NCBI GenBank assembly: GCA_026770705.1 | Contig: JANJGN010000034.1 | Coordinates: 3,782,001 to 3,846,000, forward strand | Origin: Isurus oxyrinchus | Lineage: Eukaryota | Length of the DNA: 64,000 bases | Reading direction: 5' to 3' | Part shown: piece by piece, positions 8,191 to 41,625 of the stretch | Position numbering within the stretch: the stretch's first letter is position 1 | How the letters are laid out: the number at the start of each line of letters is the position of its first letter | Position numbers and translations under genes: made by a program | Notes under the pieces: model-generated | Databases searched by the model: none | The model's input: the letters and a program-made list of their open reading frames with translations, nothing else | What the model was told of the DNA's origin: nothing

Positions 8191-10539
8191 CAAGAGATCG
8201 GTATTTTCAGGTTAACTTTGGGTCACACCTTAGGAGTTTTTATTTCCACCGTACAGGTGACTATTTCAATTAGTTATTCATAACTGTTTAACAGTGACAC
8301 GTTCAATAGTGACAAGCTGTTGATGAAATGAGCCTGTAGGTATGGTATTCTACCTTTTAAAGTTAGAAAATGAGAGGTCCGTCATTGTTTGATTATTAGA
8401 TTTGGCTGTAAAAGGGGGCCAGACTGTAAAAAATGCCAGATTGTCGCAACCCATACCCTGTGCTTTTCAGTCAACCCCCAAGCCACTGAGGGAAGCGTCA
8501 TAGCCTTAGTTAGACCTACAGTGTACCAAGCAATGAATACTTCCGTGTCGAAAGTGCTGTTTTCAAAAATAGACTTCAAAACACGGCCATGTGTTGCCAA
8601 ATCAAGCGTACTCTATGGCACTGATTTGAGAAAGCCAAACAGCCAGCTATTTCTCCCTGATGCTGAGTGCTATTGCTTGGAATCCCTGTGGTCGAATTAG
8701 GGTGAAGATATTGCATGATAGAATCATAGAATGACCACAGCACAGAAGATGTCTATTTTGCATGTGCGGCCAATGCCTGCTCTTTGCAAGAGCAAATCAT
8801 AGAGTGTCAATCCACAGTAGCCCTACAGTTTTTTTTTTCTCCTCTGATATTTATTTAATTTTTTTTAGTAATCTAGAAGTGCACAAAACAGGAACTACTT
8901 TTTTTCCCCTTGCAGTGCAAATGGAAATGTAAGATGTGCGGGGACCCCCTAAATTTAAGCCATCCCCTGACATTCTGAATCCTTGCACATTAAGGGTTTT
9001 TCATTAAACCAGCATTGATGCCTTACCTTCAACTGCCTCCGCATTAAACCCTGACAATTGCGTCATTACACATGTAACATTCTCCCCCTCTGTCATCATC
9101 ATTGAGATGCTCGTAAACACCTAATGTGATAAAAAATCATTTCTCCTACTTCTATTATTTTCTTCAGTGGCACCTTGTTCCTTTTCTTTAACGTCCCTAT
9201 GAAGTGAAATGATATATTTTCATACAGAAAAGGAGTAACACACACTCATTTTCTGAATCATTTTTAAAAAATTCAGCCCATGGTTGCCACACCTAGCTCG
9301 CCCCCTGATGCAGGGCATTAATGATGGCATCTCTAAACACAAGTGATTTCATATCGGGACATGTATTTGGCGAGTTTACTCAACTCATCGACCGAATACT
9401 TTCGTACAACACTCTCCTGATTGCATTTCATACACCCGTGATAGCTCCACGTTATGTTCCTTGTATCTCAATGCATTGCACTATCCCTTCTGCAATAGAT
9501 TGGATTACGTTCTACCTTCTGAATTAAAGAGTTGTGAAATCATTCTTATTCAGTACAGGTTGTCACCACAGCGAGGTACGCATTAAGCTGGCAGAAAATA
9601 TTCAGCACAGCACTCTGGAATTGATGGGTCATGGATGATAATTGAAACTGAGACTTTTCATGACGCTGTGAAATATCAAACATCTCTATTAAAACAACAG
9701 CTGCACTGCCCATCAGGTTGGCACCTCCTCATGTATTACTGAAAATCACAAAATAAGATGTTCCCAACGTAACATATTAATATATCTAGTATATTGTCTG
9801 TTCCCATGGCTGACATATTCCATAATTTTTGGAGTGTTCCTACAGTTCTACAGAACTTCTCTCCATGCGCAAAGTATGTGGGAGGCCACAGAGTCATGAA
9901 GCACAGCATGTGAACGGGGAAGCTTTGCTTCATGCGCCAGGAGCTGAACTCCTGAATCACGAGCATGGCAACGTGGGGAGATGGGAAAACGTTGTCATCA
10001 CATTTAAAGACTGCAGGCCTGAATGGTTATGTGTCACTCCATTTTCATCTCATTGCGATCTACCTCATCCTTTCAGTATTACCTTCGCCTCCATTCCCTT
10101 CACCTATCTATCTTGTCTGTCTTAAAGATATATAAAATGACCTGAAACCAGTGGAAACATTTCAAACATGTCACGGCAATGAGAATTGCAAGAATGGCTG
10201 CAGAGTGGCAATCTTAACGGACCTCTTTGATTTTTGTAAGCAAGTCCCTCGAGATTGAAAAATGTCTTGCATCCAGAGTGAAGGAATGGGTTCCCAGACG
10301 GCTAAAAACTGAAATGCACGATCAGCTGGGTTTTCCCAGACATGGGTCAGTGGGCCTGTTAAGGCTTTGGTAAATGAATGGTTCGGATATTTATGCATTC
10401 TTTAGAGGCCATTGCATCGATTTCCTTGCTTAGCATCCCTGACACAATCGCTCAAATTGCTTGGTAGCATCCCAAAGGAATAATTCAATTTCTTGACTGA
10501 CACAAGAAGCACCTATATTTCAGGGGCTAATGTTCTGGC

Positions 10540-13286
10540 GAAAGGATTTCAAATTCCAATTTCAATCACCAAAGCTGACCTGGCAGCGCCAGAACTAACC
10601 AACCTGGTGAAGAACAGAATAATTTATATGCCAGCTGCTGCCAGAGCTATGTCATGAAACAACTACCTAGAGATCAAAATACACTACTTGACTTAGCTTT
10701 CACTAATATGAAAGTTGCAAATGACCCCTTCAATTATCGTGCAAACAGGAGTTACTATCACAAGGAATGTTTTCCTCGCGGAAAATTGATCACGTCTTCC
10801 TTTGGCAAACACACTGCATCTTTTTTATCTCTCCCTGAAACATTAGCACGATGCGAACTCAGATAGATTCAGCGCTGTTTGGGCAGGTCAGAAGGGATCG
10901 CCCATGAACAGCTGTGAATAATGAGCTGCTGCAGAAATTTATTCAACCATAACCTGTTACATCATGGTTCAGAACATCACTCGTTTAAGATTATCGCGGA
11001 TGCAGGAAATTAACTCTTGCTGGAACGAGTTCTCCAGGATAGCCTCCGGGGAATCACCACCAGGCATTCCTACAAACGATTTGCCAAACTGATGAAAATA
11101 CAACAAAACGCTAATTGCATGATGGTTTAATAAACAATTACCTGGAGATTTTTGTTCTGTAAACAATTCAATCCTCAATAATGGGCAAAGCACAGAACGG
11201 CAGGTTAAAATATACGACTGAAAAAATTGAAAAGTCCATCAACCAGTAGTCCGGCATGGGTGAACCAACGCCTGGAAATCCTCCTGAAGGGCCCAAGGAA
11301 TTCGTTTCCCTCCACAGTGTGATAAAAAAGAAACAGTATAAGGCACTGATTAAGGCCAAGACTATGGAAATTTACAATATGTCAACTGTGGCAAAGAAAA
11401 CCTATTCTCATAACTAGCTGCGAGCCTAAGCAAGCAGCTGTGGTGCTGCAACACTCCCTGCAAACGTTGAAAATTGCCCTTACATATTTTGGCCACAAAC
11501 GAAAGTTATCAGGAAAAAATTGCCCTATACTACTAACATTCCGTAATGAACTCTCAATCATCAACTCCTTAGATTCAGTTAAGGTCCCATTTAATTGGAA
11601 GAGAGCAAATGTAACTCCAATGCACAATGCCAATGCTGTTTCCAATTGCTATAAATGACGTGGATGAAGGGATGGATGGGATAGATGCCGCCTGGTGGAT
11701 GATTCATTGACAGGTAGGTAACTAACTTTTGAAACCTGTATAAGGAGGGTACAATCAGATAGAGATACGTTAACTGAGTGGGCAAGGATAAGAAAAAAGG
11801 AGCATAATGTGGAACAATGAGATAATGTCCTTTTTGGTAGGAGAAATAAAATATAAGCTTATTGTACAGATAGTGAGGTATCTGAGGTACAAGGGGACCT
11901 GGGTACCCTAGCACATGAATCACAAATGGCTAGAATGCAGCAATAGGATGAAAATAGAAAATGTAATCAAATGTTATCATTTATTGCGAGGCCAATTTAA
12001 TGCAAATATAGGGAGGTTTTGCTTCCCACATATAAGTCACTGGTGAGGCCATGTTTGGAATAGCATATAGATTACTCGTCACCTTTCTTAAGCAAGGATG
12101 TAAATGTGTTTGGAAAGTTCAGAAAAGGTTTAGTGGATTAATACCAGGAATCGATTGGTTGTCTTGTGGGGAGTGGTTAGAAATGCCAGCATGTATTGCT
12201 AGAGTTTAGAAGCATAAGACGCAAATTGATTGAAACATAATAGGGGTTTTGACAGCGTTTGTGTCTAAGTAGAGAGGATGATTCCTCTTGCAGGGGAATC
12301 CAGAATTAGGGTTCATTGTTTAAATATAAGCGGTCACTCATTTAATGCAGATATGCTGCATTTTTTTTATTTTTTACACAGAGAATATATAGTGTTTTGA
12401 AATCTCTTGCCGAAAAAGGTAGTGTAAGCAAATACTTTAAATATTTCTAAGGCAGAGGTTAGTAGATTTTTGGTAAACACATTGGTAATAGGTTATCAGG
12501 ATGCTGATTTCAGGTTGCTATCGATCAGTCATGATCTTATTAATTGGCGGAGCAGGCTGCTGAGGCTGAATTGCCTGCCCATGTTCCCTGTCTGTATGTT
12601 CGTATGTATGCACGCACAGGCATATACATGGTGTGCGATGTGATAGGCAGGGTGTACTAAAATGTTAATTGTCCAGAATACTTGCACCCCAGTTTGCAAA
12701 AAATAGTGAGAGTGCAGATAGCACAAGTGGTCAGCATAAAATAAGTTGTGGGTAAGGTTTTTGAAACATTAATCAAGGAAACTGACTAATAACAAATAGG
12801 CTCGGTTTGAATCTTTAAGGAAATGTTGGACTAATCAACTTAAAATTTAGAAAGATATAACAAAAACATTGATGAATAAAATGCAACCAAACTTGCCTGT
12901 GTGTACTTGAAGTAAGATTTGATTGCATCAGACAGAAAAAAAAATACTTGTTGAAGGAGTGGATTTCATTATACAAAAGTGTGAGCGCAAACTTTTATCA
13001 TAACTGGCTTAAATACAGAAAACAGCGATTTGTGCTAAGCGGTTGTTCAGCATCTTTGCTATTGCCTGGCTGTGGTGTCGCCCAAGTGCTTTTTGCAGTC
13101 AAGCTACTTTCTGCTTCTATACCAATTTCTTTCATTTTGTAATTCAGAATAGTGATTTAACATTTGGCAGATTATATCAAATTCAAGTTGATGGACAGTG
13201 AGAAAGACTCCCAATTTATTTTAGAAGGAACAGAGAAAGAAAAACCTCACAACAACAGAAGGTAGCAGCTGGTCTACAAAAAGAAA

Positions 13287-13350
<64 letters not shown>

Positions 13351-14110
13351 GTCCAAGTATATACATATAAGTTGATTCTTCTACTCGATGTTAACAAATT
13401 TGCAGGCAAGCCAAAAAGCGAATTTGAAAGTCATGCAATGAAACAAGACATTCGTCGGCTAGCAGAATGTAAGGAGAGTCGCAGCTTGAATTTGAAACGG
13501 GAAGGTACGAATTGATTAATTTAAGGAGAAGGGATAAGTTTACGCACAAAATGTTCAATATTTCATTTCTAAATGCTGTGCAGAGACAGATTATTCTGGC
13601 GTAAATGTGCATAGAAGCATGAAGCTGGCACGTCATATTGAGTGGGAAATTAGCTGAGATTATGGGCTGTTGCGCTTCATAAATAGTGATTAGGAATATT
13701 CATTAATATCTGTTTAGCCCATGACTAGACCATTGGATCCAAAACTGCTCGTCACAGTTTAGGAAAGCCGGTGAATAGGTGCAGATGAAGTTCGCCAATG
13801 TATTTCGGGCTACGAATTGCAATGTTAGGTTGAAGAAGTTCTGGTGTTATATCCTTGAAACTGAAGGAGTTATGGAGAGATTTGAAGAGGTGTCCTAAGC
13901 ACTGGAGGCGTTAGAGAAGGCAGTCATAGAAACCTCTTTTTGTCAACTGTTCGTACAATCATTAGAGAACACGGCTTTAAGATGTGGGCTTTCGATGCAG
14001 AGGGTCAGTCATGTATAACGTTCTCTGCATCGATTGGTATTGTACTTAACTCACTGCCTGGGAGCGTGCTGAAAGCAGAGGTGATGAGCAATTTATCAAC
14101 GCAAATTTGA
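10540..14110 (+). mobile_element. Cluster of old LINE fragments (L2/CR1-like then CR1 3' ends)
   Basis: NTLLDLAFTN (ORF 10654..10866), WKRANVTP (ORF 11440..11658) and degenerate CR1 C-terminal sequence to ~12600; paralogous copies at ~21110-23650 and ~32300-33150. Confidence 0.65.
13290..13346. repeat. (TA)n microsatellite
   Basis: Uninterrupted TA run. Confidence 0.98.
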
Positions 14111-14785
14111 TGGGCGTCTATTTCTCTCAGAATGGATTACATAATTCCACTATCAAAGACATGATTAGCTCCAGTTTTTGCCTTTCTTACTTATTACATC
14201 CTTGATGAAAGCATTCTCTTTGCTGAAAGTTTTAATCAAGCATATGCGATTCCTCAACTACTGAGAGTGATCTGTATTTTCAGATTAAGATCGGGAAATT
14301 CATTGGGATTTTTAAAAGCTTGACTTTTTTTTCATGGACTGTTGTTGATAGGAACCGATAGCATTCATTAGCAGAGATGGAAAATGATGGATCAGTGATT
14401 CCTTGCTTATTTATTTTAGCTGGAAAAGTGTGATGAAATATATGCCAGATTCTCCATACTCATATCCTCTGCTTCACAGTCAAACTCCAAAGCACAGACT
14501 GTAGTCTTGGTTAATGCTCTGCTGTATAACCAAGAACTACTCCAGCTTCGTAAGTGTTATTTTCCAAATGAGAATTCAAACCAAGGCCACGTTTCAACAA
14601 AATAACTTATACTCGATGGCACTGTTTTGAGGATGCTCAACAACAAGGTAATTCTCTGCAATGCCGAGTGTTACTACTTGTCTTTTAACTAATGGTATTG
14701 CAAATATAATTTACTTTGTTAAATTTGAGGCATATTCATCTGAAACAATTCAAGCTGAATTTGTTGCATGCTTTACAGTGCTGAC

Positions 14786-14821
14786 CTGCTCCACTGAACT
14801 TTTCAATGAGTCGTGCAATCT
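14786..14821 (-). CDS. 36-nt phase 1-1 microexon, (E)IARLIEKFSGA
   Basis: tttttcttttcctctctccag|AGATTGCACGACTCATTGAAAAGTTCAGTGGAGCAG|gtcagc; open; paralogous to 24216-24251. Confidence 0.8.
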
Positions 14822-17800
14822 CTGGAGAGAGGAAAAGAAAAACACGTTTTGTAACGCACGTTGAAATATATTCACGTTTCATCATTAAATTTAAACAAAA
14901 AGCAACATCTAAAAAATGCTGAGTCGAGGTCCAGTAAATTGAAGGTTTACTTTCGTGAATCATGGTATGGATCTGCGAAGAGCTGTCAAATAACTTTGTG
15001 CTTTCGCTCTTCCTCCGTTATTCTTTTCAGGTGCAGACTTTGGACTTGATGTTTTTCGATGCCTATCTATGCTCACGCCTTATAAATAAGCAAAACACTG
15101 AATATTGAAACGTTACATTCACTGTGAATTCCTGACAAAATTGATGGAATTTCTAGCAGAAAGATGCAAAATCGAAGCAGTCTAACCTTATTTCAAGGAA
15201 GAACAAGTATATTTGCCTTTTCTTCTCTGAGAGAAATTCAATGAGTGACACTTTGCTGCCTCATAATCATAAAGCTGATTTTTTTTTCCCAACAGATATT
15301 CATTCAGCTACATATTAAGGTTTCGCTTGAATCTATTCCGAAGACATTGTGGCAGCGCATTCCTTATCGCATTCATTTATATTTATGAGACGTCCAGCGT
15401 GCACTGATGCACGAGGCTAATAAAGAACCGACATGCATCGATTTTCATAGGCTGCGTTTGTCCTCAGTCTGCTTGCTAACCTGAAGCTAATGGCTGTAGC
15501 CTGAGGGTCAAAGTTCGGCATCAAGCATGGCTAACCAAAATTCCCACCCAGTCATACAACCTGCATGACGGTTGTTGGCAGGAAGTTGATGGTCAACATA
15601 TTCACCTGCCATATGAGGCCGGCCTCCATGGCCATCAAGCCAGTGCGACTGGAACATGTGGAATCTGGCTGCCCACTGTCCTACAATAAATCACTGTATT
15701 AATCACTCCATTCAGAGAAAGGACACGCCTGTTATCGCTTTTAATTGAATTGCTAACCAGATTGCATATGTTGTCTGTACTTCATTATCATTGAGCCAAT
15801 TACAACATTGTCTTCAGGTGCGATTTTAATGCCTGTATCAAATGTCCTCTAAACCTTCCCTTTTCGAAGTGTAACAGTCACAGTTTATCGAATCTATCCA
15901 GAAAATTGACGATTTTTCATTCATGGAACTATACTCATGAAAAGTCTCTGTGCCATCTGCCATATCATTATATTATTCCTGTTAAGTGGTGCCCAGACCT
16001 TGAACATGACTTCAGCTGAGCTCGTAATAATGTTTCATATTGGTTGACCATGACTAAAATACTTTTGCGCTCTATGTTTCTAACCATAAAGCCCACGAGT
16101 CTGTATGCTTCAATGGCCGGTAATGCAACGTGCCACAGCAACTTCAATGATAGAAGCATAGATGAAAAAAAATCAATTTTCCCCACTAGCACGTTTGGAC
16201 TTGCAAGTTTTCTTTTAAAATACATCTCATTCCTCCTAACAAATTAATCATCCGCTCTACTATAAATTGATTATCATCAGCCAGTTTCGATGCCATGTGA
16301 CCCCAATATATAAATCGACTCCTCCTTCTTTCGGTATACCAGAACACAGCTCTTCGTTCACGATAATTGTATCCATTTAAATATTCCTATTCCACCTAAT
16401 CACACTCCTTTAGCCCATTCAGGGTCTCAAATAGGCTGTTTTTGTTCAGGTTTTGCGAGCCGATTCTTCTGGTAGAGGCAAATAGAAATTATTTACTTAG
16501 TACTTACTTGTGAATATATATACATATGATATAGGGGCAGGATTCGAACATTTGAGACTTCCAATCTTCTCCTTAATTTCATATCATCGTGACTCGTCTG
16601 ATTATGGATTGAACTCGAATTCCCTTCAGCTGCCACCGCCCTTCTTCATCAATAACATTTGATTCAGTCCAGGCCAAATATCTATCTCCACCTTGCATAC
16701 ATTGGATGGTATAGGGTCAAATTCTCCTTGATATAGAAAACAAGCTTTCATACGTAGATCAAAGATGATTCCCATTTCAAAAATCCAATAACCTCCTTAA
16801 CAATGGATTAAAGCATTTAATTAATGTCAGGTCTTAGGAATTATGGCCTATACCTCCATGGTTTCAAACTCACTCGTCTCTAAAATCAACGTTTTAACTT
16901 TTCATGTTTACAGGCCGCTTTAACGTTTCCAGAATCAAGACATTGTTGTAGGCATGCAGCAGCTATTTCTGCCGCCACTTGTGAGAACTCACGTGGTTGT
17001 AGGACATCCAAAGCCGGTGACTTGTCAAGCCATTGTCCCATTGGCTTTCCAAAGACCTTTCTTCCTTCTTTAATAATGTCAGTGATTATTTGAAGTCCCT
17101 CTTTCTATTGTTATTTACCAGATAGCATTTTGTGTCAACAATCACGAAGACGTGTTCAAAATATTTTCCACGTACCTGCTAAAACCTTGCAATGCATTGT
17201 TATTCCATCAGTCTCGCCCACTGGGTGACTTGAGCTTACTTTGGAGCTATCTGGTGTGAAGCTTTTCCTATTTTACTTTTCATAGCACCTTCGTTAAACA
17301 GTGCATGATATATTTGATAATGGTTATAAAGAATTTCAATGGATTGTGGGGAAGAATGAAACTGAATGCATTTAAATGCACGCAACATTCCGAGTTAAAA
17401 TGACAAACGGATAGCATAAAAATACATAAATAATTATGATCTGAAAGCAAATACAGCGACATTGCTGCAGGGTGACACAGATTAGCCTCTGAATATTGAA
17501 GATCACATGTTAATTTATAAGTGAAGGAAGTTAGCAAAACATAGAGGCGTGGTTCTATTATTTAATTATGGTATTCTCACAATAGCGATGGTTGAACTAG
17601 GGTTTATAAACTATGATGCCTAAACGTTCAGGCAGAGGTTAGGACAAACATAAGGCAAAGCGTCGCGTGTGGGAGTGGTGGGCATATCTACACAGTTGGA
17701 GAATTATAAAGGAAGCAATAATACGAGTCTCTCGGAAAATATATCGATAGTTACATAATTTCTAAATCTACAAGGGAATTGGAAAATTCACATGGTCAAA

Positions 17801-19938
17801 GGATAACCTGGATGATGAGTTCATGGAATATTTTTGGAATAGGATCTTTGAAAAGCATGTTCTGGAACAAACAAAAAGCAGGCTATATGTTGGGCAAGAA
17901 AAACGTGTTTAATTCAAGACCTCAAAGTCAAGGACACCCCTCAGGTAGCATTGGTGATTGCCATTTACATCTTGTTTCAGGGTGAGAAGAGTGGGTCCAC
18001 GGCTCTTACTTGAAACGTCAGTAGGGAAATTTGTAAAGGCATCAAAGCGCAGCTAGCTGAAGTGAAAAGGCAAAACAGGCAATGTGGTAGGTGAGTATAA
18101 ATGTAGTTGTAACCATCTATAGGGGCATATCAGAATATGCCGAATACATACAAACCAACGAGGCAGCAAATATTCAGTTGAAATACCCACCATCCGTGGT
18201 TAGCTGAACACGAAAAGATAGTATCAAACAAAAGAAATATATATAATTGTGCAACAATGGATTGGACATATTATAATGAAACAGCGAAAAATTACAAAAG
18301 GGTCAAAAAGAAGTGGGTGAAAGAGTGCAAGAGAGAGCTAGATATAAATAAAAAGACATATTATGAGCTTCTATACATGTTATATAAAGAAAAAAAGTTA
18401 GTAAAATTAGCGTTGCATCGATAGAAAGAGAATCAGCGGCATAAATAACATTGACAGATGATGAATTGAACTGGTATTTTGCATCGGATATAACCAAACT
18501 CCCAGCAATAATTGTGAAAAAGGAAACAGAAGGGGTTCAGGCTGTCATGAAAACTCCAATAACTGGGCAAGGGGAACTGAACTTATGACTGTAGCAGGGA
18601 GATGACAAGACATATTCCAAATATCATTCCTCATTTTTACAGTAATGTGCTCCATGACCAATATTACGGCACCACCTCATTTTTACACCACTCACCTATG
18701 CGCCCTAACACCCCCACCCCCCCCAAACCCTCATGCACCTGCCTCGCCTGAAGATTATATATCTCAGAGAATTGAGGTGCGAGTCTGACCCCTCTGTATC
18801 CATGTCTCTTTGACAAAAATGATATCATCAAAGCCCTCAACCCATCCGCCTTCATGGCATGACTTTGTGATTAAAATAAATGCTATCCAGCCTTACCATG
18901 CTTCCTTGTGCCTTACTTGACTATATTCACCTTACCTTCCAGTCTGACTTGTTTTTCCTTCTGTATGTTGTCGGTGCTTGACCTCCTACTAATCTTCCAG
19001 TTCGCATCCCAGCCCTGCAAACGTACTTAACCGCCACCAACATCACTAACAAACCCACACACCCTAATATCCACAAGGATATTTTATTGGATGTTGACTT
19101 TTGGAAGTTAGATGACGGCTCAATGATCTATGCAACTATTTTACTACTTTTTGAGTGTTTTTACTCAACTCACCACAAACGTTTTGTGACAATATGTATT
19201 CAAAATATCCACACATACTGATTACTGTTTATGATTTTCTTACCGAAGGCACTTTCTAAACAATCATCATACGTAAACCATCATAGTAATGGTTAGATTT
19301 TCTGATTCTCCCATCTGCCTGTCTTCTGGAACTGTTATGTGCAATGGAATAAAAATTTTGCAAGCTTGATCACTTGTAAGAACGTAGATTTCAAAAATTA
19401 ATTCATCTCATTTTTTGTCATGAGTAATCTGTTTATTTGAGATGCCCTGCACGTTCAGATTACGTGGGTTCAGGTGCATTATTTTCTTCATATTATATGC
19501 TTCAACCTTAATCTGTAGTGCACCATTAAGAATTTGGGTGCTCACACATTGCGACTTAAAACTACGCGTGAAGGTAAGGAAATTGGCTACAAACCGAAAG
19601 TCAACACAAATCAGTCAGTTGGTTCACTGTCGCCTGAATACACAGTGTATAACTAATATTCTCCTCTAAGTGTCGCTGCAACAAATGCTTTAACTGTGAG
19701 CGCAGACTAATCAAAAGCATGGCGCAACGACGGCTCAGCTGTGCAGGGGCTCCTGAAGGAATCTGGAAAAAGATTTGCTGAGGGGTTTTAAACCCACCAC
19801 AAGTAACTTTGCAGGAAGTTGTATCGTCTGCATGAAAGCAAGGTTAAGTTTGTAATATTGATCTACCTAAATATCTACCTATCTATCCGTATTACTATCT
19901 ATGTCATCATCCAGATTAATATCTTCCTGACCGTCTAT

Positions 19939-20168
19939 NNNNNNNNNNNNNNNNNNNNNNNNNNNNNNNNNNNNNNNNNNNNNNNNNNNNNNNNNNNNNN
20001 NNNNNNNNNNNNNNNNNNNNNNNNNNNNNNNNNNNNNNNNNNNNNNNNNNNNNNNNNNNNNNNNNNNNNNNNNNNNNNNNNNNNNNNNNNNNNNNNNNNN
20101 NNNNNNNNNNNNNNNNNNNNNNNNNNNNNNNNNNNNNNNNNNNNNNNNNNNNNNNNNNNNNNNNNNNN
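19939..20168. other. Assembly gap (230 N) flanked by imperfect ATCT-like repeats
   Basis: N run with atctatc/atctacc-type repeats on both sides. Confidence 0.99.
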
Positions 20169-22494: not shown

Positions 22495-24215
22495 TGGGTG
22501 CTTTAGTACATGGCTCTTAAATGACTAGGGTTCAACTACAGAAAATAAGTAGTAAAGCTATTAAAATGTTGCAATCATCTGCAAGGGGAATGGAATACAA
22601 ATGTCGTGAGGTTATGTTTAAATTGGACAGTTCACTAGAGAGAGCACATTTGGAATACCATGCACAGATTTGTTTACATTATTTAAGGTAGGTTGTAAAT
22701 GAGTTGGAAACAGTTCAGAGAAGGTTTGCCGGTCTAATTCCAGAAATGGGTGGGTTGTCTCATGAGGGCAGTTTTGACAGACTATGCATGTATCCACTGC
22801 AGTTTAAAGGAGTAACAGGCGGCCTGATTGAACCTTTATTATCTTGAGGCATCTTGACAGGCTGGTTGTGGAGAAACTGCTTCCTCTTGTGGGAAAATCT
22901 GGAACAAGCTTTCACTGTGCACAAAATTAAGGGACAACGCCCATTTAAAACAGGGATGCAGCAAATTTATATACATCAATGGGCAGTGAGCCTTTGGAAC
23001 TCTGTGCATGAACATGTGGTGGAAGCAGAGCCTGCATATCTCAAAGATGGTGCTGGGTCTATAATTCGTAAGCAAGCGTTATTGAGGGTACATGGGATGC
23101 AGATTTCAGGTTGCTCTCAAATCAGACAGGATCTTCTTAAAATGAAAGCCATATTGAGGGAGCAATTAGCGAAGAATATGGGATCTTGGACATCACAAAC
23201 AGAGAGACGGAAGATTCATTAATCTATGCTTAGGCCACCAGAAGAACACTGGTTTCAGCTGATTTCACCATACGTTAGGAAGAATTCGAGTGTCCCTCAA
23301 TAGGGCCAGATGAATTTTACCAAGCTGCTTTCAGAGATGAGGAATAAAAATTGCGATGTAAGGTTGGAGGAGCTCTTTTCTCTATCTTTGAAACAAAGGT
23401 GTTTATGGTGAGATTTGATAGCGAAATACAAAGCAATGGGGGTGTTAAATAAGGTTGACATAGACAATACCATCTTATTAGCCGGTCGTACAATGCAGAG
23501 ATGACACAATTTAAATGTATGGGCTTTCTTTGGACAGAACCGTAAAGTATAATGTGCTCTGCATCGATTTGTATTGACCTTTAACTCGGGGTTAGGAGGG
23601 TGCTAAAAGCAGAGACAATAACTAACTAATAAAGCAAATGTGATGGGCGCTAGTATATCCCATAAATGATTATATAACTCCAGTGCCAAAGGCACGATTA
23701 GCTCATGTTGAAGCATTTCGGGTCACATTAACATTTGTCTTCATGCTTGATGAAAAAAATCCCTTTCCTGGAGCTTTTAATCAAGCATCTGCGGTTCTTC
23801 CACTGCTCATAGGGATCTCCATTTTCAGATTCAGATCTGGAAACTCATTGAGTGTTTTTGATTTTCAAAGGTGACTTTTTTTTTACATTTAGTTACTCAG
23901 AAATGTTTAACAGCGAAATGTTCAACAGCATTGGACCGCAGACGATACGAAGCTCCAGAACTGATTTTCATATTTAGGAAATGAGGCATCAGATATTGGT
24001 GGAGTATCCATATCGGCTGTTAAAGGGTGAAGAGATGTATGTCAGATTTTTGCTACTCATACCCTATGTTTCCAGCTTACCTGCAATTCACAGGCAGGAA
24101 GACAATAGTCTGGCTTGATGTAAATATAAAATGTAATTCCCTTTGGTTATGACAAAGAGTATATTAATCATAAACACTTAACGTTTTAATGGCTTGGTGG
24201 CTACAATGTGCTGAC

Positions 24216-24251
24216 CTGTCTCACTGAACTTCTGATTGAGCTCTTCAAGTT
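24216..24251 (-). CDS. 36-nt phase 1-1 microexon, (E)LEELNQKFSET
   Basis: tttctgcttactccctttccag|AACTTGAAGAGCTCAATCAGAAGTTCAGTGAGACAG|gtcagc; open. Confidence 0.8.
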
Positions 24252-27200
24252 CTGGAAAGGGAGTAAGCAGAAATTAGAACGTACGTTAAATGATAACACA
24301 TGTTTTGCCATTGTAATTAAATAAGAAAAACAATACCAAAGAAAACACAAGTAAAAAAGAAAACTTTTGAGTCCTAGTCCGCTAGAATTAAGGTTTACAT
24401 GACCACCATGAGCACAGTGAATTAATCTGACAAAAGACGGCTAATTACGGGTGCGCTTCCAGGAGTTGATTGGGGTTACTCTGTTCTTCCCTTACTCATG
24501 ATGCCTGATGCATAATTTCTATTTGACGATTTGCGATGCTTATCTTCGGCACCCTTTACTAATGTGCAAAATTATTAACAATTGGAATGTCACATTCAAC
24601 ATGGTTAATGTCTAAATTGACGGAATTTCTCAAAAGAATCTGCAACACGCAACCTGGACATTAGGCTCTCCTTGCCTCTGAGCAACTTATCTCCCGACAC
24701 GCTACTGCCTTAGACCCATAAAGTTACACCATTTTGTTCTCTTCAGCCATTTGTCCAATTCCATATTAAGGCTTCGCTTGATGCATTTCCAACCACTTTC
24801 GGGCAGAAAATTCCAGATCCCTATCATTAATATTGAGAAAACCCTGAACACCCATTGAAGCATGAGACAAATGATTAAGGTATTTCCATCTATTTTCGCA
24901 ATTCCTGTTTGTCCTCCACCTGGTTGCTCACCTGAATGTAATGGCTGTAGCTTGAGGGGCAAAACTCCCTCTGAAGAATGGCTAACCAGGATTCTCCCGT
25001 TCATGCAGTCTGCATTAGGTTTGTGGCAGGATTTCAAAGTTAATAATTAACATCTTTGCCCACAATACCAGAGCGGCTTCACTTTCATGAAGCCCTGGAG
25101 TGCGACTGCAGCCTGGGGATTAGGCTATACACTGTCCCACAATAAATCCCGGCACTAATCATCTATTTTAAAGGAAGGTTTTTCCTCTTATTGGTAATGC
25201 TAAATTTGATAAACACCTTAATGTCTCTCCTCTATTTTATCATAATTAGGCCGATTGCAACACTTTCTCCCATCTAGTCTGTGCTGACGCTTCGTCATTT
25301 CAAATGTTTCAACAAATCTACACATAAACTTCCCTGTTCGAAGGCAGGCTCCCCCTGCTTAACCTCCATCCAGCTAATTGAAAATTCTCACGCATGGAAC
25401 CATTCTCGTGAATCTTTTCTCCTCCCTCTGTAAGGTCATGTTATTTTTCCTGCTATGTGGTGCCCACATCTGGAACATCACTAAAGCTGATTCTGGACCA
25501 ATGTCCTATATAGCTTTACCATGAATTCCATTGCTTTGCATTCTATCGTCCACGATACATCCCACAAGAGTTAATGCTACTTTGATGCTGACAAGACTTG
25601 CCCCAGTAACTTCAATGATATATGCAAATATGAAACAGGTCCAGTTTCCCCTCTAGCACTTTATGGCCTTGCAAGCTTTATTTAAGTTACATGTCCTTAT
25701 TCTTACTAAGAAATCTAATAATCAACACTTCACAGTATTAATTTTCTTTTCCCATTTCGACGCGATGAGTCCCTAATAATTAAATTGTTTCGTATTTCTC
25801 TCGCAATAATAGCATGCATCTCATTAGTTCTTGCTACGTATTCAAATTTCCTTTTTCCTATTCCACCTAATCATTCTTCTTTAGCCAAAGTGTCTCAGAT
25901 ATCATTTTTTTGTTTAGAACTTTGCGATCAGATTCTTCCTTGGTAGAGGCAGACAGAAAGTGTTTAAATAGTACATTCTTAAGAACATATAGACATGTGA
26001 AATAAGGGCAGGATTAGACCATTTGACCCTTGCAACCTGCTTCTCAATTTCATATGATCATGGCTGATCGGATTTAGTCTTAACTCGACTTTCCTGCGGC
26101 AATTGCCCCTTCCCTTCCACCATAAAGTTTTGACTTTATACCAGGACAAACATCCAGCTATCTCATCTTGTATACGTTAAGTGGCATAGACTGATTGCTC
26201 TTTCCTATAGAAAATATAGCTTTCAAAAGTAGAACAAATAGGATTTCCGTTTCATTGAACAACATTGATTTTTTTCGAGTCGACCATCTTTTTCTAACTG
26301 TAATGTTATAACCTCCTTAATAATGGATCGAAACAGTTTATGAATGGCAGATTTCAAGCAAAATGGCCGGCGTGTTCCTGGTTTCTACCTCCATGATCTC
26401 AATAATCAAAGTTTTACATTGGTACTTTTACAGGTTTTTGCAACTTTTCCCAAAAATCTGAGATTTTTTGAAAGCTTGCGACTACAACAAGAATAAATTC
26501 TGCTGCGACTTTGGAGACAGCCAGAGGTTCTAGTACATCTAATATGGGGTGTTGTTCAGCTGTTGCCCACAGCCTATCGATCGACGTTTTTCTGTCGCTA
26601 ATTATGGAGATTATTTGAAGTCATCACCAAATATTGAGAGTTTTGGATGATTTTTTGCGTCAACAATATTTAAGGCAATAGTTTCTCCTTAATTCTGTTA
26701 TACCCTTCTTATACAATATTACTTTCCCAGCCTCCAAAACGGAATACCGATCGCTTAATTTAGCAGCTATCTTCATTGTTATATACTCGGATGAAGCTTT
26801 TCCTGTTTTATTTTTATATAACATTTCGTTAATCAGTGCATGATGCATTTGTTAGTAGTTATAACATATAACCAAAGGATCATAACGAAGAATGTAACAT
26901 ATTGTATCCAAATGCACACAGAAGTGTAAATATAGCAGGAGAGCTGATTGCTCAAACGGAAATAATTAAGTATGATTTTACAGAAGCTGCAAACATATGG
27001 CTGCAGGCTGGCTTGGATTAGTCATGAATATTGAAAGGTAAATGACAATGAAGACTTTCAAGAAATAATGAAACATGGTGGTTTATTCCTGCAAAATAAT
27101 GATGACATTAATATAAATGAGATGGCTGAACCACGTATAAGAAAAAGTGGCATTTAAGCAGTTCGATGCAGATTAGAAATTATAAAGGCAAGACGAGACT

Positions 27201-27299
27201 TATTGAAGTGGTGCCCAGGTGTACACGATTAGAGCAGTATTAAGGAGCCTTTCCGAAAAGTAAGGCAAAAAAACAAAGAAGCTTACAATCTACACTGAT

Positions 27300-29720
27300 A
27301 CTGGGAAAAGCAGATATACAAAAAGTGGCTTGGATGCAAAGTGCATAGAATACTTTTGGGATAGTTCTTTTTTTTTCGAACAGCACGTTCTGGAGTCAAC
27401 AGGACAGTAGAGCACACTAGTTCTGGTATGGTGCAACAAGGAAGGATTAAGAAATGGCCACATATTTACGACATCCCTGGGTAGCATAGATGATTCAATT
27501 TTACATTCGGCTTCAGAGAGAGATGAATGGAACCTATACTTTTACTTTGAACTTTGAATAGGGACAAATACGAGGGCTCTAACGCAGAGCTAGTTAAAGT
27601 GAGAAAAGCAGATTAGGCCAAGGGCTAGTTCACGAGAGATGCAGTGGCAGAATTGAATCATCAGAATGTGCAAAATAGATAGAATCCAATGAGAAATAAA
27701 ACAAAAGGTCCCTGTATATGCCAACTGGGGTCAGCTAAAATGGTTCATAGAATATTAAACATAAAGAGATAGAAACATATAATTGTGCAAGTATGCATGA
27801 CACATCGGATTATTTGGCACAGTATAATGGGACGGAAAATAATTACTAAATCTTTGATAAGGAGGGGAAATAAAGTACAGGAGAAAGCTAAATAGAAATC
27901 TAAGATCATGTATTAAAAGCGTCTTTAGATATTTATGAAATTGAACTGTAAGCAAAGTGAGCATTCGGCCGATAGGAAGTTAATTTGAGGACATATTAGT
28001 GGAGATGTTAGGTGAATTGAACAGGCATTTTGCTTTGGAATTAAAGAATATCCCAGGAATACTTGTGAATCAGGAAATGGAAGGGAAGGACACACTCAGG
28101 AAAATTAAAATCACATGGGCAACGCTGCTGTGCATATTGTTTCAGCAAGAGGTTGAAAAGCTCCTGAGCCATGAAGTACTTCATCCTACAGCCATTTAAT
28201 AAGTGGCTAGTGCGATAGTTTATGCCTCGGTATTAATTTTCCAAAGAAAAATTGCTAGATTCTGGAAGGTTCTGTTAGTTTGGGGCATAACAAGTGTAAT
28301 TTTTTTCTTCAAGGAGAAATGGAGACAGGAAAGAATAAATTACTTGGCACCTCAGCTGAAATATCTCACTGGGAAAACATGAGAGTTTTTTCAAAGATGT
28401 TACAGCAGGGAATTAGATAGGTCACAGGAAGGTCGACACATGCATCATGGTTTTATCAGAGTGAAATCATGTTTAATCAAATTAGTGGACTGCTGTGAAG
28501 AACCAAAAGAGCGTGTGTATGATTGGGGAACGGACGGTTGTACTTCGCTTTGAATCCCAGAAGTCTCTGTATAATTCACCTCATGAATGATCGTTCTAGG
28601 AACTGAAATCTCGTGATGTTACAAATAACATATCGGCATGGAGCGAATGTATACATGGTAATAGGAGTCAGAGAGTATGCATAACTGATTCATTTTCTGT
28701 TTGGCTTTATGTAAGGTGTGTGCGCTACAAGGATGAGTGATGAGGCTCTAACTTTTATTTTACAATTTATACAATGGCGTGGATGAATTGACCGAAGGCA
28801 TGTTTGCTGAATTTGCTGTTGATACAGAAACAGGTTGGAATGTTCGCTGCGAGTGGGATTTCAGGAGGCTGCAAAAGGATAAGCATAGTTGAAGGTTTTG
28901 GGCAAACATATTGTAAATGGAACATAAAGAAGTACATTTGAAATTGTCCATTTTGGCACGACGAATAATCACGAAACATGTTAGCCATTTGGTGATATGA
29001 GGCAAAGTTCGGAGATGTAGAAGGACCTGCATGTGCTAGTTCATGAATTGCAAAATCGTAGTATGCATGTACCGCAAGACATTAGCAAATCTAATAAAAT
29101 ATTACTGTTAATCACAAAATGAGTTCAGTACAGGCATAGAGAGTATAAGCGACATGGATACAGACCATTTGTGACACCAATATGGAATAAGGTCTACATT
29201 TCTGGATTCCTTCTCGAAAAATGTTGTACACGCATTGGAAGAAGTTTGGAAAAATGGGGGAGCTGTTTCATGAGAATTGTTTCGATATGCTAGCCGTGTT
29301 TGTGCGCGGGTTTAGAAGAGTGAGACACAACTTGACAAAAAATCAATAGCAGCCTGAATGGGCTTGACTGTGTAGGTGTGGATATGACGTTTGCCTTGTG
29401 GGCGAATCTACAAATAGGAATCATTGTTTAAAAGTAAGTGCTCGCCGCTTTAAGAAGAGATGAGTCGATTTGTTTTTCTCCGACCGAATATCCCAGGGCT
29501 TTGAAAATCTCTTCGTCAAATGGGCTGGAAGGAATATCTGTGAATATTTGAATGCAGAGCTCGATAGACTTCTGTTAGGCAAAAGTTTGAAAGGTTATCG
29601 GGCTAGGTGGAAAGTGTAGTTGAGTTTACGATGCAAAAAGCTCTGTTCTTATTGAATGGCGAAGCAGGGTCGAGTGCCGAGTGGGCTATTCCTGCTCGTA
29701 ACTGGCATGATTGCATGTTC
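27300..29720 (+). mobile_element. Degenerate CR1-type LINE ORF2 and 3' tail
   Basis: Decayed ORF2 motifs in order (HGF..KSCL at ~28445-28475, KFA-D at ~28800-28830) ending in a CR1-like 3' tail at ~29640-29720. Confidence 0.7.
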
Positions 29721-30567
29721 GCAAGAAATGGAGTTTGCCATTTTGCCCCACGAGCATGCTGTTACTTCAATATTAAATCTGATTGTGCTGTAAAATCCAC
29801 TTTCCTGAGCCTCTCAATTTTCCTTTCAAACGTTAACCCTCCAAACTCCCGACGCCTCCAACCATCGTTGTACTTTTCTCCCTTGCATAGGAACATTTTC
29901 CTTGTTCATTCATCAACGTATTTAGTCACCCAACCTCCACTGCTCTCTGGGAGGGAGATCTCTGAAGTTTCCAAAGCATCTGAAGTAAAGAAGGAATATA
30001 TCCTCCTATCTCTGTCTTAATTGGGAGACATGGTCTTTGTTAATTGTGTTTGCTTGGTCCAGATTAGCGGGTGAAGAAAAGATCCCCTCGCCATCTTCAA
30101 TGACAAGCATCTCAGGAGTTGCAGTTATATATTAATGATTTGGATGAAGGGACAAATTTAAACATATATAAGATACATTTATTTATATACAGGCAGATTA
30201 AGTGAGTGATGAAGTTTTGGCAGATGGAGTTTAATACAGCTTTGTGTGATGTTATTCAATTTGCTTGAAGGAAACCAAAATAATGTTGCCTCTCAGTGTA
30301 GAAAACAGTGTAGAATGTAATGATCAGACACATTCAGGTGTTCTGGTGCGTCAGAATGAAGGCACTGCATGCAAGTGGTATGCTGGCAATTAGTGCAAAG
30401 AGTTTGTATTACAATGATGAATAAGTTTTATGACAGTTCTGATGGGTTTTGATGAGTCTGCATCTGGGTTACATTTTGCAGCCTTAGTCTCCATTTTTTT
30501 TTATAGAAAGGATATATTTGCATTGGTGGATACATGAAAGGATCATCCATTCATCCAACTCTTTCAC

Positions 30568-30573
<6 letters not shown>

Positions 30574-30602
<29 letters not shown>
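30574..30602. repeat. (TA)n microsatellite
   Basis: TA run ~35 bp into the intron after the 27-nt exon donor. Confidence 0.95.
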
Positions 30603-30606
<4 letters not shown>

Positions 30607-30619
30607 ACCAATCATGCAC

Positions 30620-33150
30620 CTGCGTAATATACTTACCAATTTCCTTGTCTTTTAACTTGTTGTCTTGGAATATAAAGTTGCTACACATTGGTACGCATGC
30701 ATAGATTTATTTACACTCTATCGAATGTAGCCGAACACATATACTATGTTGTTAATTAAAACGATAAAGCTGTCATTGTAAAGACCACAATTTCGAATGA
30801 CTGCAAGATGACTCGAAAAGCTTTGCAAATTGTTCGTTTTGATAACATCTCTACGAAGTGAAATGAAATATTTTGGTACAGAAAAAGGAGTTATAAAAAC
30901 ATATACTTTCTTCTTAATTTCAAGTACAGCCAGCGGCTGTTATTCATAGTGCCACGACCGCTACCCCCTCCCTGCCCCAACCACCCCCACGCAGGGCATT
31001 GGCGGTTATGAGTCTGCATTCAATTGAATTCATTTCTGCGGGCGCCTTTCGGGAGATGACTCAAAACATCTACCGAATATTTTAATAAAAAACACCCTCC
31101 TCGTTGAATTTCCCCCACACCTGACAGCTATCATATGCTCCATGTATCTGATTGGATTGCCTTATTCCTTCTGGATTAGCAAGTTGTGATTTGCTTCCCA
31201 CTCTGTACGCTATGTCATGACAGCTAGGCACATATTAAGCATGCAGAAATTGTTTTGCACAACAATCTGGGAAATGATGCGACTCCGCTGAGAATATAAG
31301 CTGAGGCAGGGTCTACCCTTTCATGACGCTGTTAAATGATAAACAGCACTATTAAAGTAACAGTTGCACGGTTCATCCTGTTGACACGTCCTTCGTGCAT
31401 TACTGGAAGAAAATAGGATAGTCACAATGCTGTCAATTTGATGCATCTGCAAAAATCCATTCCTATGCCTGACGTGTTCCCTAATTTTATGAATGTGCCG
31501 AAAGTTTAGAAGTCTTTTTTCTTTCCATGTGTAAGCCTTTTGGAACTTCCCAGGGCAGTGAGCAGGCCAAGTGAAAGGATAAATTTTGCTTAATGTGTCA
31601 GGAGCAGGAACTTGTGATTTACTGGCTTGATAGTAAATAAAGATTGAATTAATTTTATCACCTTTAAGGGTTTGCTGGTGTGCACATGTGGTTCTGTTTC
31701 ACGTAATTTTCATCTCAACGTATTCGATCTCATCCTTCACTATTTTGTTCACGTCCTACCGCCCCCACATGTCTCTCTCGTTTCTGTTAACTAAAAACAT
31801 ACAAATTGAACTGAAACCGGAGGCAAAATGTAGAAAACAAAGTAATGACAGAGAGATTTGCAAGAACGGTTAAAGAATAGCAATTTTGGTTGGCCTCCAT
31901 TACTTTTTCCAAGGAGGTCCCTCGAGATTGAGAATTACTTGTTTTGATAGCGAATCATTGGGTTCCGGGACGGCTTATTAACAATTGGTGTGTGAACGCT
32001 CAGACAAATGAATTGCTGTTTTTGATTGTGCACTCTCTCCATTGCTCCACTTCCCCGCTAAACATTTCCAACACAGTCGCTTGATGTGTCTGGTGCCTTG
32101 CCATATAATTTGTTCCAATTCTTGATGGTCATAGGATGCACCGACAACTTGGAGTCTAATATGATGGTGAGATGAGTTCAAAATCCAGAGTCAGTCAGCA
32201 AGGCTTGTCTGCAACAGGCTGATTGACCGAGCTGACGAAGACAGGAAACATGTATCAGCGAAATTGGGCATGGTCTATCGGCTGATGCAACCACGTAGAA
32301 GGAAAAGTGGAGAATCTAGTTGACTTCGCTTCCTTTAATATGCAAGTCAAAAATGGCCCTATCCTTTATCATGCAGACATGGCACATTATCGCTCAGCAC
32401 TTTTGGAAAGCAGATCACGACATCCTTCTGCAAACACACTCCATGTATTTTTTTTGCACTCTGAAGCATCAACACGATCTTAAATCAAATAGATTCAGAA
32501 CGGCCCTCGCAGCCAGTGCGGGTCATCCAGGAATAGTTGCGAATTATGAGCTGCCGCAGAAATAAATTAAACAAAATCTGTAATATTATGGTTCCGAATA
32601 TGATTCGTTTATGGTTATGTCTAAAGCAGAGAATCAAATCTGGCTGAATGGGTTGACCAGTAGAGCCTGCGATGAAACATCTCCAGGCATTGCTAGAAGC
32701 AAGTCCCCAAACTGGTGCATATAGATTAAAGCACCAAGTGAATAATTAACAGGGAAGCAGCTTTGCTTGGCAGAACGTAAAGATCTCACAAAGCACACGG
32801 TGAGTTAAAACGCTGTGGTCCTCGGAAATTCCAGCCTAGAAAAGTGCTGAATGATGAAACGATTTCCTTGAAGTGGATGTTTTGTAATCACTTTAACACT
32901 CAATAATGGAATTGCACAATGCGACTGTGTGAAGAATATAGCTGAATCAATTGGAAATTTCATCAGCCAGCTGGCCTGTTTGGGAGCACCATCAATTTGA
33001 CCTCCACCCGAGGTGCCTAAGGAGTACAATTCCCTTCTCAGCGTGATAAAAACAGCTGAATGCATTGAATAAAACCAATAAGGCAACTGCAACATTGAAA
33101 ACATATGCTGCTAACTAGCTGTGTACCTAGGAAAGTTGCTGCACTACTGC
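30620..33150. repeat. Degenerate tandem segmental duplication, copy C (partial)
   Basis: Matches 20210-20410, 9175-11460 and 21110-21960 (e.g. gaagtgaaatga..cagaaaaggagt at ~9200 and ~30855). Confidence 0.85.
30637..30663 (-). CDS. 27-nt phase 1-1 microexon, (N)NKLKDKEI
   Basis: gcaactttatattccaag|ACAACAAGTTAAAAGACAAGGAAATTG|gtaagt; weaker AAG acceptor, consensus donor. Confidence 0.75.
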
Positions 33151-33724
33151 AACAACAGTAAGAATACTCTGTAAACGCTCACAATATCACTGATAAGTTG
33201 AGTGCACATAAAGCAGCAAAAAAAAAATCACCCCGTTCAACTATTTCTGCCGAAACAATCTCTGAATCATAGCAATTTGATAGATGGCCTCATTGCTGAA
33301 GTTATCAGGTAACACTTCCTGAGTAATGATATTTTGGGATCGAGCAGGTCCATTCCTGTGAGATGTCATTTGAGACTTTGCACAAATATAAACGCAGTAG
33401 CTTAATTCAAGTGTTGCAATTATTCTAATTGCATTTGTAATGAAGGCAGCGTAAAAGAGACCATAAAAAAGGATGCAACTTGAGTTCGGTCTTGGCTGAT
33501 ATTCCATTGGCTAGGAGTCTGAACAAGTGAAATGTAAGATGTACTCGCTTAATGGTCTACGCAGCATCATAAGGCCAATCCTGAAGTTTTCACAATGGAC
33601 ATTACCACATACAGCTGCAAAGGTGCTGATACCGGCTATAGGCACATAGAAAAATATCTGGTGAACATTCAGGCTTGAAACGGTAAGGTGATTGTGACAT
33701 TCAAGCCAGATATGTACCAGTTGC

Positions 33725-34812
33725 TTTTCCTCACTTCTCAACCCACCAGCCTCCGCATTCAATGGATAATCCTCGGCCATTCTGCGATCTACAGCATGAT
33801 GACACCACCAAACACATTTCCCTTGCCCACACCCACACCTCCCACCCCCGTGCGGCATTTTGTAGGGATCAATACCTCCGAGACACCCTGGTCTACTCCT
33901 CGAAAACCCCAACTCCTCAATCCCAAACTACAGCACCTCCCCATGCCCAGTCAAAAGATGTGCACCTGCCCCTTCGCCTCCTCTGTCCTCACCGTCCAAG
34001 GGCCCAAACACTCCTTTCAAGTGAAGGAGCATTTTACTTGCATTTACCCAACTTATTCTACTGCATTCGTTGCTGCCAATGTGGTCTCCTCTACTTTGGG
34101 AGAGACCAAATGTAAACTGGGCAACCGCTTTGCAGAACACCTGCGGTCTGTCCGCAACAAGGACCAAAACCTCCCAGTTACTTGCCATTTTAACCCTCCA
34201 CTCTGCTCTCTTGCCCACAAGTCTGTCCTTGGCTTGCTGCATTGTTCCAGTGAAGCCCAACGCAAACTGGAGGAACAGCACTTCATCTTCTGACTAGGCA
34301 CTTTACAGCATTCTGGACTGATTATTGAAATCAACAACTTCAGATCTTGAACTCCGTCCTCCATCCCCACTCCCTTTTCGTTTCTTCCCCCTTCCTTTTG
34401 TTTTTTTTTCAATTATTTATATAGATTTTTTCCCCTCCTATTTCCATTATTTTTAAATGTTGTATGCCCTGCTTGTCTTTCCACCCCACTCCCACTAGAG
34501 CTGTACCTTGAGTGCCCTGGCCTCCTACTTATTTAGCACATTTGTTTAGATAATATTACAACCTTCAGCACCTCGTTGTTACTTTGACTGTGACATACTT
34601 TGATTATCTGCTCCTATCACTGCTTGCTTGTCCCTATAACCACACCACCCACTCCCCTCACTGAACCCTGCACACACACCTCAAACCAATTTATATTTCA
34701 CCCCTCCCCTAATATTCACTCAGTTCTGTTGAAGGGACTCAAAACGTCAACTCTTTTTTTCTCCGCCGATGCTGCCAGACCTGCTGTGTTTTTCCAGGTA
34801 ATTATGTTTTTG
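33725..34812 (+). mobile_element. 5'-truncated Penelope-like retroelement (GIY-YIG endonuclease C-terminus and 3' terminus)
   Basis: Frames join as NLFYCIRCCQCGLLYF/GETKCKLGNRFAEHLRSV..LPVTCHFN..RKLEEQHFIF*LGTLQ, a Penelope GIY-YIG signature with frameshift and stop; ends in the hammerhead-like terminus. Confidence 0.92.
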
Positions 34813-35459
34813 TATCGAGATACATCATCGCTCACGATGAAACTGAATGGCAATGCCGGCTTAAAGGTCCAACTGATCCAATGTTTCTCCTTCTTCTCTT
34901 TTTCAATGCCCAGCGCTGTCTTAAGAAGGGACTTTGAGCAATCTGGGCCTGCATGCACTGAAGTTCAGAATATTGGGAGGTGACATTACTGAAGCAATGA
35001 GATTTTGAGATGGCTTGACAATTTGGATGTTCTCAGGACGTTTCGTTTCCACTTGTGGGGTAATCTAGAGCTGGGGAACAGTTTCAAAGTAAACGCCCTG
35101 CTAATAAATTTGGAGTAGAGGAAACATTGCACCCTCAGATCGCTGTTAATTTCTCGATTTCAATGAAGCAGAAAAGAGTGAAGGTTGGTCATTGAAGATA
35201 TCCAAGGCTGACTTAGAAAACTTATTGATTGCCAACAGAAATAACAGTTATGAGGGTCAGGAAGGAAACTGAAATTAAGGATAAAATCATGGCAGTCAGG
35301 GATGGATTAAGTGATGAAGCAGGTTCAAAGCTCAAATAGTTTAGTTCCAATTTCCAATTTCATTTTTGTATTTTATTCATATCTGTTCAATGGAACATTG
35401 TAAAAGTGAACAGAAAGATTAACACTCCGCTGACCAGGCCTATTCCTGGTAATTCTTAC

Positions 35460-35495
35460 TGCTATCTTGCAACGTCTTCTTTAGGCGTTCAATAT
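35460..35495 (-). CDS. 36-nt phase 1-1 microexon, (D)IERLKKTLQDS
   Basis: ttttatttatattttcag|ATATTGAACGCCTAAAGAAGACGTTGCAAGATAGCA|gtaaga; open, strong splice sites. Confidence 0.78.
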
Positions 35496-41613: not shown

Positions 41614-41625
41614 AGTATACATACA

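Follow-up and report, generated by a model that had tools for sequence, protein, structure and literature searches.

The window analyzed here comprises 64,000 nucleotides (nt) of the shark Isurus oxyrinchus (contig JANJGN010000034.1, referred to as C34, positions 3782001-3846000; contig position = 3782000 + window coordinate), and 400 kb on each side were examined in addition (genome size, 5.0 Gb). Positions outside the window are also given in window coordinates unless a contig is named. The entire window (1..64000) lies inside a predicted minus-strand gene, and we consider it probable (roughly 0.75) that this is one gene for a protein with a B30.2 head on a long stalk, which is a segmented, parallel coiled coil and was extended by tandem copies of a two-exon unit. 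We observed a chain of micro-exon candidates with a single open phase, a heptad pattern of 12+9 residues, intragenic duplications, and a B30.2 exon placed in a clade with related sequences (Table 1). An earlier note on this DNA had proposed a coiled coil lengthened by tandem duplications of ~10 kb, each adding three heptads, with three degenerate copies of the unit. The scale proved to be different, with about 118 exons rather than three units, and the five exons of the duplicated segments form a small share of the chain.

When splice-site scores alone were used, the window ±200 kb contained 26 candidates of 27 nt and 28 of 36 nt on the minus strand and 1 and 5, respectively, on the plus strand. 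Between -307 and +160 kb, 57 such candidates were selected by splice sites alone on the minus strand versus 2 on the plus strand, and the phase-1 frame was open in 56 of these 57, the other frames in 33 and 15. With a profile score, the minus strand yielded 43 and 39 candidates, and the plus strand 0 and 0. The final chain contains 118 candidates (70 of 27 nt, 41 of 36 nt, 4 of 30 nt, 2 of 21 nt, and 1 of 33 nt) with ~1190 residues, and in 116 of them the preceding exon supplies the G for unit position 1. Six doubtful candidates were removed before this count, with 19827 coming back via the splice rule; the retained candidates 19827, -136934, and -208151 are probably false, and candidates above +160 kb and the two terminal exons found separately are excluded from the count. 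A 36-nt candidate near 49308 read by eye had an acceptor score of -10 and is not in the final chain. The gaps of 14-30 kb in the chain and the different exon types upstream and downstream of the window would also fit two or more transcription units, with window exons that never reach the B30.2 exon. We regard this as quite improbable, as strand and phase are constant throughout, each of the five B30.2 exons on C34 has its own array, and no further B30.2 exon of the family lies between C34:3.47 and 4.82 Mb among the matches listed. Window, chain, and B30.2 exon are likely parts of one half-megabase shark gene.

Table 1. Coordinates of the predicted gene and of the features in the window
Feature	Position	Strand	Remarks
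Micro-exon chain	+157234 to -298047 (C34:3483953-3939234)	minus	~455 kb; runs beyond both window ends
Terminal B30.2/SPRY exon	C34:3474119-3474636 (locus L052)	minus	307 kb outside the window; phase-1 acceptor at -307364
27-nt phase-1 micro-exon candidate EDKLRQCEK	61233..61259	minus	upstream in the same chain; flanks homologous to exon at window +144831
27-nt phase-1 candidate GPLYNEKER	40958..40984	minus	good splice sites; less certain
36-nt phase-1 micro-exon candidate DIERLKKTLQDS	35460..35495	minus	no flank homology to the two remaining 36-nt exons
27-nt phase-1 micro-exon candidate DNKLKDKEI	30637..30663	minus	weak acceptor AAG
36-nt phase-1 micro-exon candidate ELEELNQKFSET	24216..24251	minus	AG..GT flanks
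27-nt phase-1 micro-exon candidate DKTIKDKDS	20220..20246	minus	duplicate of 30663-30637
36-nt phase-1 micro-exon candidate EIARLIEKFSGA	14786..14821	minus	duplicate of 24251-24216
Duplicated segment C	30629..33052		27-nt exon and part of intron I
Duplicated segment B	20212..30628		sole complete unit: 27-nt exon, intron I, 36-nt exon, intron II
Duplicated segment A	9175..20211		intron I copy (9175-14785), 36-nt exon, intron II copy; without own 27-nt exon
Junction and fourth partial copy	8150..9236		8150-8720 similar to intron directly after 36-nt donors; 9175-9236 similar to 30830-30891

In a self dot-plot of the window, colinear similarity of 64-74% identity (best E value, 9e-109) was present at offsets of 9.4-9.6, 10.4-10.6, 11.2, and 21.65 kb. 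Global alignments of the segments gave 68-69% identity over 4660/4967, 1865/2101, and 1835/1951 bases, compared to <45 aligned columns in shuffled controls. The earlier note had pointed out that its claim would fall if the similarity were confined to LINE families; the colinear identity, however, includes locus-specific DNA. In genome-wide searches, 9498-10303 was matched by 31150-31975 only, 14013-14332 was matched by 23547-23883 only, and the best match of 15893-16779 was its sister copy. As the first two stretches match their sister copy alone, the similarity goes beyond a shared LINE family, and we regard the units of the window as duplicates. Recognizable repeats common to 1.2 Mb of other DNA cover 1-26% of each intron, and an old high-copy repeat with 3325 candidates genome-wide is located at 17350-18490; from their appearance, we take the repeats of the window to be shark SINEs and CR1-type LINEs. 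A short N stretch lies inside one intron of the window.

The previously reported spacings of 11244 and 9430 bp between 36-nt exons and of 10417 bp between 27-nt exons are all exact and refer to minus-strand AG..GT phase-1 exons. A homologous pair of exons was recovered for each length (36 and 27 nt), along with introns copied in part, but not three complete units. The 27-nt exons number two rather than three, with none near 9175, where just a 23-nt AG..GT stretch (9196-9174) was found that is probably not an exon. The exon at 35495 had to be dropped as a third homologous 36-nt copy, as its flanks were at shuffle level in five of six comparisons; the sixth gave a 28-nt match alone, ~500 nt away. 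The fragment 8150-8720 shows 69% identity to 14230-14706, and the similarity of 9050-9178 to the post-donor introns had p values of 0.94 and 0.048. We tentatively infer that one whole 27+36 pair was deleted at the 9175 junction.

The translations of the exons form a regular heptad pattern. In 39 units composed of a 36-nt and a 27-nt exon, positions 2, 5, 9, and 16 are hydrophobic in 87-97%, position 12 is hydrophobic in 44%, and position 19 is often Lys, resulting in a 3-4-3-4-3-4 spacing of hydrophobic residues. E1/K6 and K15/E20 are complementary g-e pairs, as is usual in parallel coiled coils, and in 19 of the 41 36-nt exons, core position 5 is a Cys. The core pattern was not created by the profile, since splice-only seeds show an identical one. 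A collagen (Gly-X-Y) reading of the 27- and 36-nt exons was rejected, the translations being helical instead. The unit of 12+9 residues is, as the earlier note had assumed, a three-heptad module that is kept by the array. The heptad power of the real exon order was 0.68 versus 0.31 ± 0.07 in 500 order shuffles (105-exon chain), and a clean run of 12 units (-166738 to -220263, without -208151) had a best period of 3.50. When a single exon of this run was skipped in silico, the mean 3.5-residue hydrophobic power dropped from 5.2 to 0.9, whereas 4.8 was left when a pair was skipped, as expected if skipping of pairs keeps the register and skipping of single exons breaks it.

None of the 117 junctions in the chain is a 36-36 junction (13.9 under the null), and in 23 of 40 cases, the distance from one 36-nt exon to the next is 21 residues (8.3 under the null); neither value was reached in any of 10000 shuffles. 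Of five apparent 36-36 neighbors, four contain an intact 27-nt exon in between, as judged by flank homology or a weak candidate, and the fifth does likewise in a wider scan. A strict pairing of the two exon types, as implied by the earlier proposal, is not supported: 26 of the 117 junctions are 27-27, and the spacing of successive 36-nt exons is in register in 25 of 40 cases and off register in 15. Predicted isoforms of relatives differ by single segments. Among five ray models, a single internal segment is missing in two, of 9 residues in one and of 6 residues in the other. Among four chimaera models, a 9-residue segment is absent from two, one of which is also without a 7-residue segment, where the segments are not established as 36+27 units. 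As these models drop single segments of 9, 6, or 7 residues, they argue against an obligatory paired skipping.

The idea that exon length and splice sites were retained under selection was supported. Only 7.5% (36 nt) and 9.3% (27 nt) of neutral intron windows with the divergence of the copies keep the length and the four flank bases, and the chance that the two duplicate pairs in the window would both survive under neutrality is ~0.7%. In 14 independent duplicate pairs, dN/dS was 0.69, and the proportion of nonsynonymous differences (pN) was 0.14 in the core and 0.30 elsewhere, with a proportion of synonymous differences (pS) of 0.35. The hydrophobic core positions are kept in all five window exons. 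Because neutral windows rarely keep length and flanks and because pN is low in the core, selection appears to act on the splice sites, on the length of the exons, and on residues of the a/d core, whereas surface residues seem to drift almost neutrally.

Copying of any 63-nt unit preserves the register automatically, and a drifting number of units, constrained by the register, agrees with the data as well as a selected ruler does. We give about even odds to the view that the register is a by-product of 36+27 copying, that the unit number drifts, and that rod length is not a selected ruler. This would agree with the closeness of non-core pN to pS, the 15 off-register spacings, the widely varying predicted lengths among family members, and a neighboring paralogue built of 21-nt exons. 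However, duplications of single 36-nt exons would be equally in frame, yet 36-36 neighbors are absent, and old copies with 68% intron identity retain length and splice sites. These last two observations indicate selection on the register and are silent on total length.

The terminal open frame matched the SPRY model (E value, 3e-18), and the PRY model was unmatched; a PRY search gave no match on C34 in the best 150 of 313 candidates. The genome contains seven members of the family, the six paralogous B30.2 exons being located on C34 (four exons, 44-45%) and C21 (two exons, 32-33%), and in all seven an array of 27/36-nt phase-1 exons lies upstream of the B30.2 exon on its own strand. In a midpoint-rooted B30.2 tree with one long branch, the seven were placed with models from catshark, ray, skate, basking shark, and chimaera and with two unnamed proteins in a 15-row clade (support, 100/99), outside of which lay 21 rows from TRIMs, butyrophilins, and others. 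The B30.2 of the gene is sister to that of catshark XP_038668997 (100/100, 72% identity), and the closest protein matches are all from cartilaginous fish. Models of the same clade are XP_038668997, XP_038671249, XP_069775384-90, XP_042191566-8, XP_055510696, and XP_078422387. Three terminal micro-exons match XP_038668997 in order and a fourth does so by eye; in a C21 paralogue, 9 of 13 splice-selected exons have a match in the annotated catshark protein XP_038671249 (p ≤ 0.04), and eight of these follow its order. Residues 1-118 of XP_038668997 look retroelement-like by eye, suggesting that its annotation overlooked the micro-exon array. Atlas look-alikes of the catshark protein were B30.2 clusters alone. 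We found no published literature on a chondrichthyan coiled-coil-B30.2 family in a search with most subscription journals outside its reach, and the family is unmentioned in the accessible parts of PMC6795676 and PMC2657112. The results point to an ancient, previously overlooked family in sharks, rays, skates, and chimaera.

The models of the family have 175-945 residues versus ~1360 residues predicted for the shark gene. If the window array were decaying, with pseudo- or rarely used exons inside a long intron, the main product might be short, a coiled-coil-B30.2 protein resembling the models from ray and chimaera. Besides these short models, such a decay would explain that exons and introns diverged about equally in the window duplicates (24/36 and 22/27 exon bases identical), that their codon changes are all replacements (12 replacement and 0 synonymous-only codons), that one acceptor is weak, and that one copy has no 27-nt exon. 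The low joint neutral survival of the duplicate pairs, the hydrophobic core in all five window exons, and the 945-residue family member annotated in catshark make it unlikely.

Heptad-coding phase-1 micro-exons in front of a B30.2 exon are the layout of butyrophilins (accessible part of PMC5938342), and the closest solved relatives of the B30.2 domain are TRIM58, BTN3A1 (E value, 2e-20), and TRIM21. The gene could accordingly be a membrane butyrophilin/BG-like gene or a TRIM gene with overlooked immunoglobulin (Ig) and transmembrane exons or RING and B-box exons, and one skate model begins with a hydrophobic stretch; no convincing transmembrane frame was seen at the shark locus. We consider the butyrophilin/BG-like or TRIM reading very improbable. 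No Ig match was obtained in 86 minus-strand and 25/28 plus-strand frames (80+ amino acids, 2+ Cys) at 144-234 kb, and no Ig, RING, or B-box Pfam match in 111 frames of the 5′ region or in 54 frames of the 5′ region of the next gene. The Ig scan recovered Ig in two true butyrophilin-type proteins used as controls and none in five family models, all five of which have SPRY as sole Pfam domain. A scan of 864 kb showed no RING pattern and one chance-like B-box pattern. The B30.2 clade, moreover, includes none of the sampled TRIM or butyrophilin rows. A claudin-like GLWEC frame at +212 kb was discarded; it had no Pfam match and looked like an old repeat by eye.

Several points weigh against one gene with a long stalk. 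Besides the gaps and the 27-27 junctions, which mean that missed or false exons may exist in the chain, successive 36-nt exons are in some cases 30, 31, 32, 39, 48, or 67 residues apart; this means a segmented rod or exons that were overlooked. Neither a start codon nor a first exon was found in first-exon and CpG-island searches, and the minus strand at 140-240 kb contains no ATG-started hydrophobic first exon. In the window, the acceptor at 30663 is weak, and the duplicates differ by replacements only. The plus-strand control of the comparison with XP_038668997 also gave four matches, with scores of 10-19 versus 19-31. The database orthologues are predicted models, mostly of 230-378 residues, one of them with a wrong-looking N terminus, and for I. 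oxyrinchus, gene and splicing are predicted from genomic sequence.

If the chain forms one gene, its stalk would have grown by tandem copying of a block of 36-nt exon, intron, 27-nt exon, and intron, probably via unequal crossover. Copying of the two-exon unit would keep both frame and register, and the window would contain old copies of it. The predicted stalk could reach up to ~175 nm at 0.15 nm per residue. The heptad charges and the example of TRIM20 (accessible part of PMC4455283) suggest that the predicted protein likely self-associates via the stalk. Two or three B30.2 heads would then be presented to a ligand by a soluble receptor or scaffold without a ubiquitin-ligase or Ig module of its own. 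Domains of major histocompatibility complex (MHC) class I are located at C21 93.6-100.3 Mb, 2-4 Mb from both C21 members, whereas the class I domain search gave none on C34. From the domain and the MHC-linked paralogues, one can guess at an immune role, which we hold to be possible, with the odds somewhat against it. A wider proposal seems rather unlikely to us, namely, that these genes encode soluble, partly MHC-linked B30.2 receptors of cartilaginous fishes with ~100 frame-symmetric cassettes, in which splicing would set the stalk to ~30-175 nm in three-heptad steps and core cysteines would lock chains or bind metal, so that isoform diversity would concern reach and geometry and not the binding site.

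In the stalk of CD23 (FCER2), too, exons add three-heptad repeats of 21 residues, but it has one exon per repeat, three repeats, and a C-type lectin head. A C-type lectin neck of the CD23/CD209 type was rejected for the shark gene, which has a B30.2 instead; there was no motif within 200 kb and no match on C34 in the best 150 of 614 candidates. Mammalian butyrophilins (BTN/BTNL) resemble the shark gene in having heptad exons and then a terminal B30.2 exon entered in phase 1, but they are Ig-bearing membrane proteins with few heptads, and the shark B30.2 is in a separate clade. Chicken BG genes have signal, Ig-V, and transmembrane exons. They further contain 27-37 phase-1 exons of 21 nt, in a number varying between genes and with heptads straddling the junctions, and have long tails instead of the few heptads and B30.2 of butyrophilins (accessible part of PMC5938342). 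They share with the shark gene a long coiled coil from many phase-1 heptad micro-exons; the shark gene differs by its 36+27 unit, its ~118 exons over 455 kb, and its B30.2, and no Ig was found. TRIM proteins (TRIM5, TRIM20/pyrin, TRIM21, TRIM39, TRIM58) combine a coiled coil with B30.2, and databases call the orthologues of the shark gene TRIM39-, TRIM58-, TRIM69-, or A33-like, but no RING or B-box was detected in the shark gene, and its B30.2 lies outside the TRIM rows. The coiled coil of TRIM20, which places B30.2 heads for avid binding (accessible part of PMC4455283), is short and antiparallel, whereas the g-e charges of the shark unit suggest a parallel rod of >1000 residues. The chondrichthyan coiled-coil plus SPRY models share B30.2 clade and domain content and form the family holding the shark gene. 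By its predicted structure, the gene appears to work like the heptad-exon tails of butyrophilins and BG, yet no Ig, RING, or B-box was detected, and it belongs to a clade of its own. A teleost protein of 1576 amino acids has a very long coiled coil and a B30.2 that falls outside the chondrichthyan clade.

Further arrays are found next to the gene. A divergent paralogue on the plus strand (+222000 to +464000, C34:4.00-4.25 Mb; B30.2 exon at C34:4816515) has 19 phase-1 candidates of 21 nt versus 1 on the opposite strand, each coding for one heptad as in chicken BG, and may span ~800 kb. At -331917 to -392283, the array of the next tandem paralogue starts on the minus strand (B30.2 at C34:2708638), with eight 27-nt candidates versus none on the opposite strand. 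Within the window, an inverted repeat of 225 bp (36169-36393 / 36985-37209) has 100% identical arms around a SINE-like element and is either recent or an assembly feature, an old direct repeat of 320 bp with 65% identity (40531-40849 / 41962-42283) flanks the 40984 exon candidate, and a younger high-copy element with long open frames is inserted in segment C at 33722-34834 (one frame checked, no Pfam match). On C21, >100 PRY-bearing exons are clustered around the MHC at ~83-118 Mb (among the best 150 of 313 candidates). Far from the main class I cluster, C21:66132994-66134184 contains MHC class I alpha-1 and alpha-2 matches ~660 bases apart, each in an 845-residue open frame. On C43, ~100 C-type lectin exon matches are clustered (among the best 150 of 614 candidates).

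Because this family is coded almost wholly in 27- and 36-nt exons, annotation truncates its members and mislabels them as TRIM or butyrophilin. The ~40 datable duplicated units offer a test bed for the constraint that the heptad register imposes on exon duplication and skipping, and the family bears on the origin of the heptad-exon tails of butyrophilins and BG in the MHC region of jawed vertebrates.

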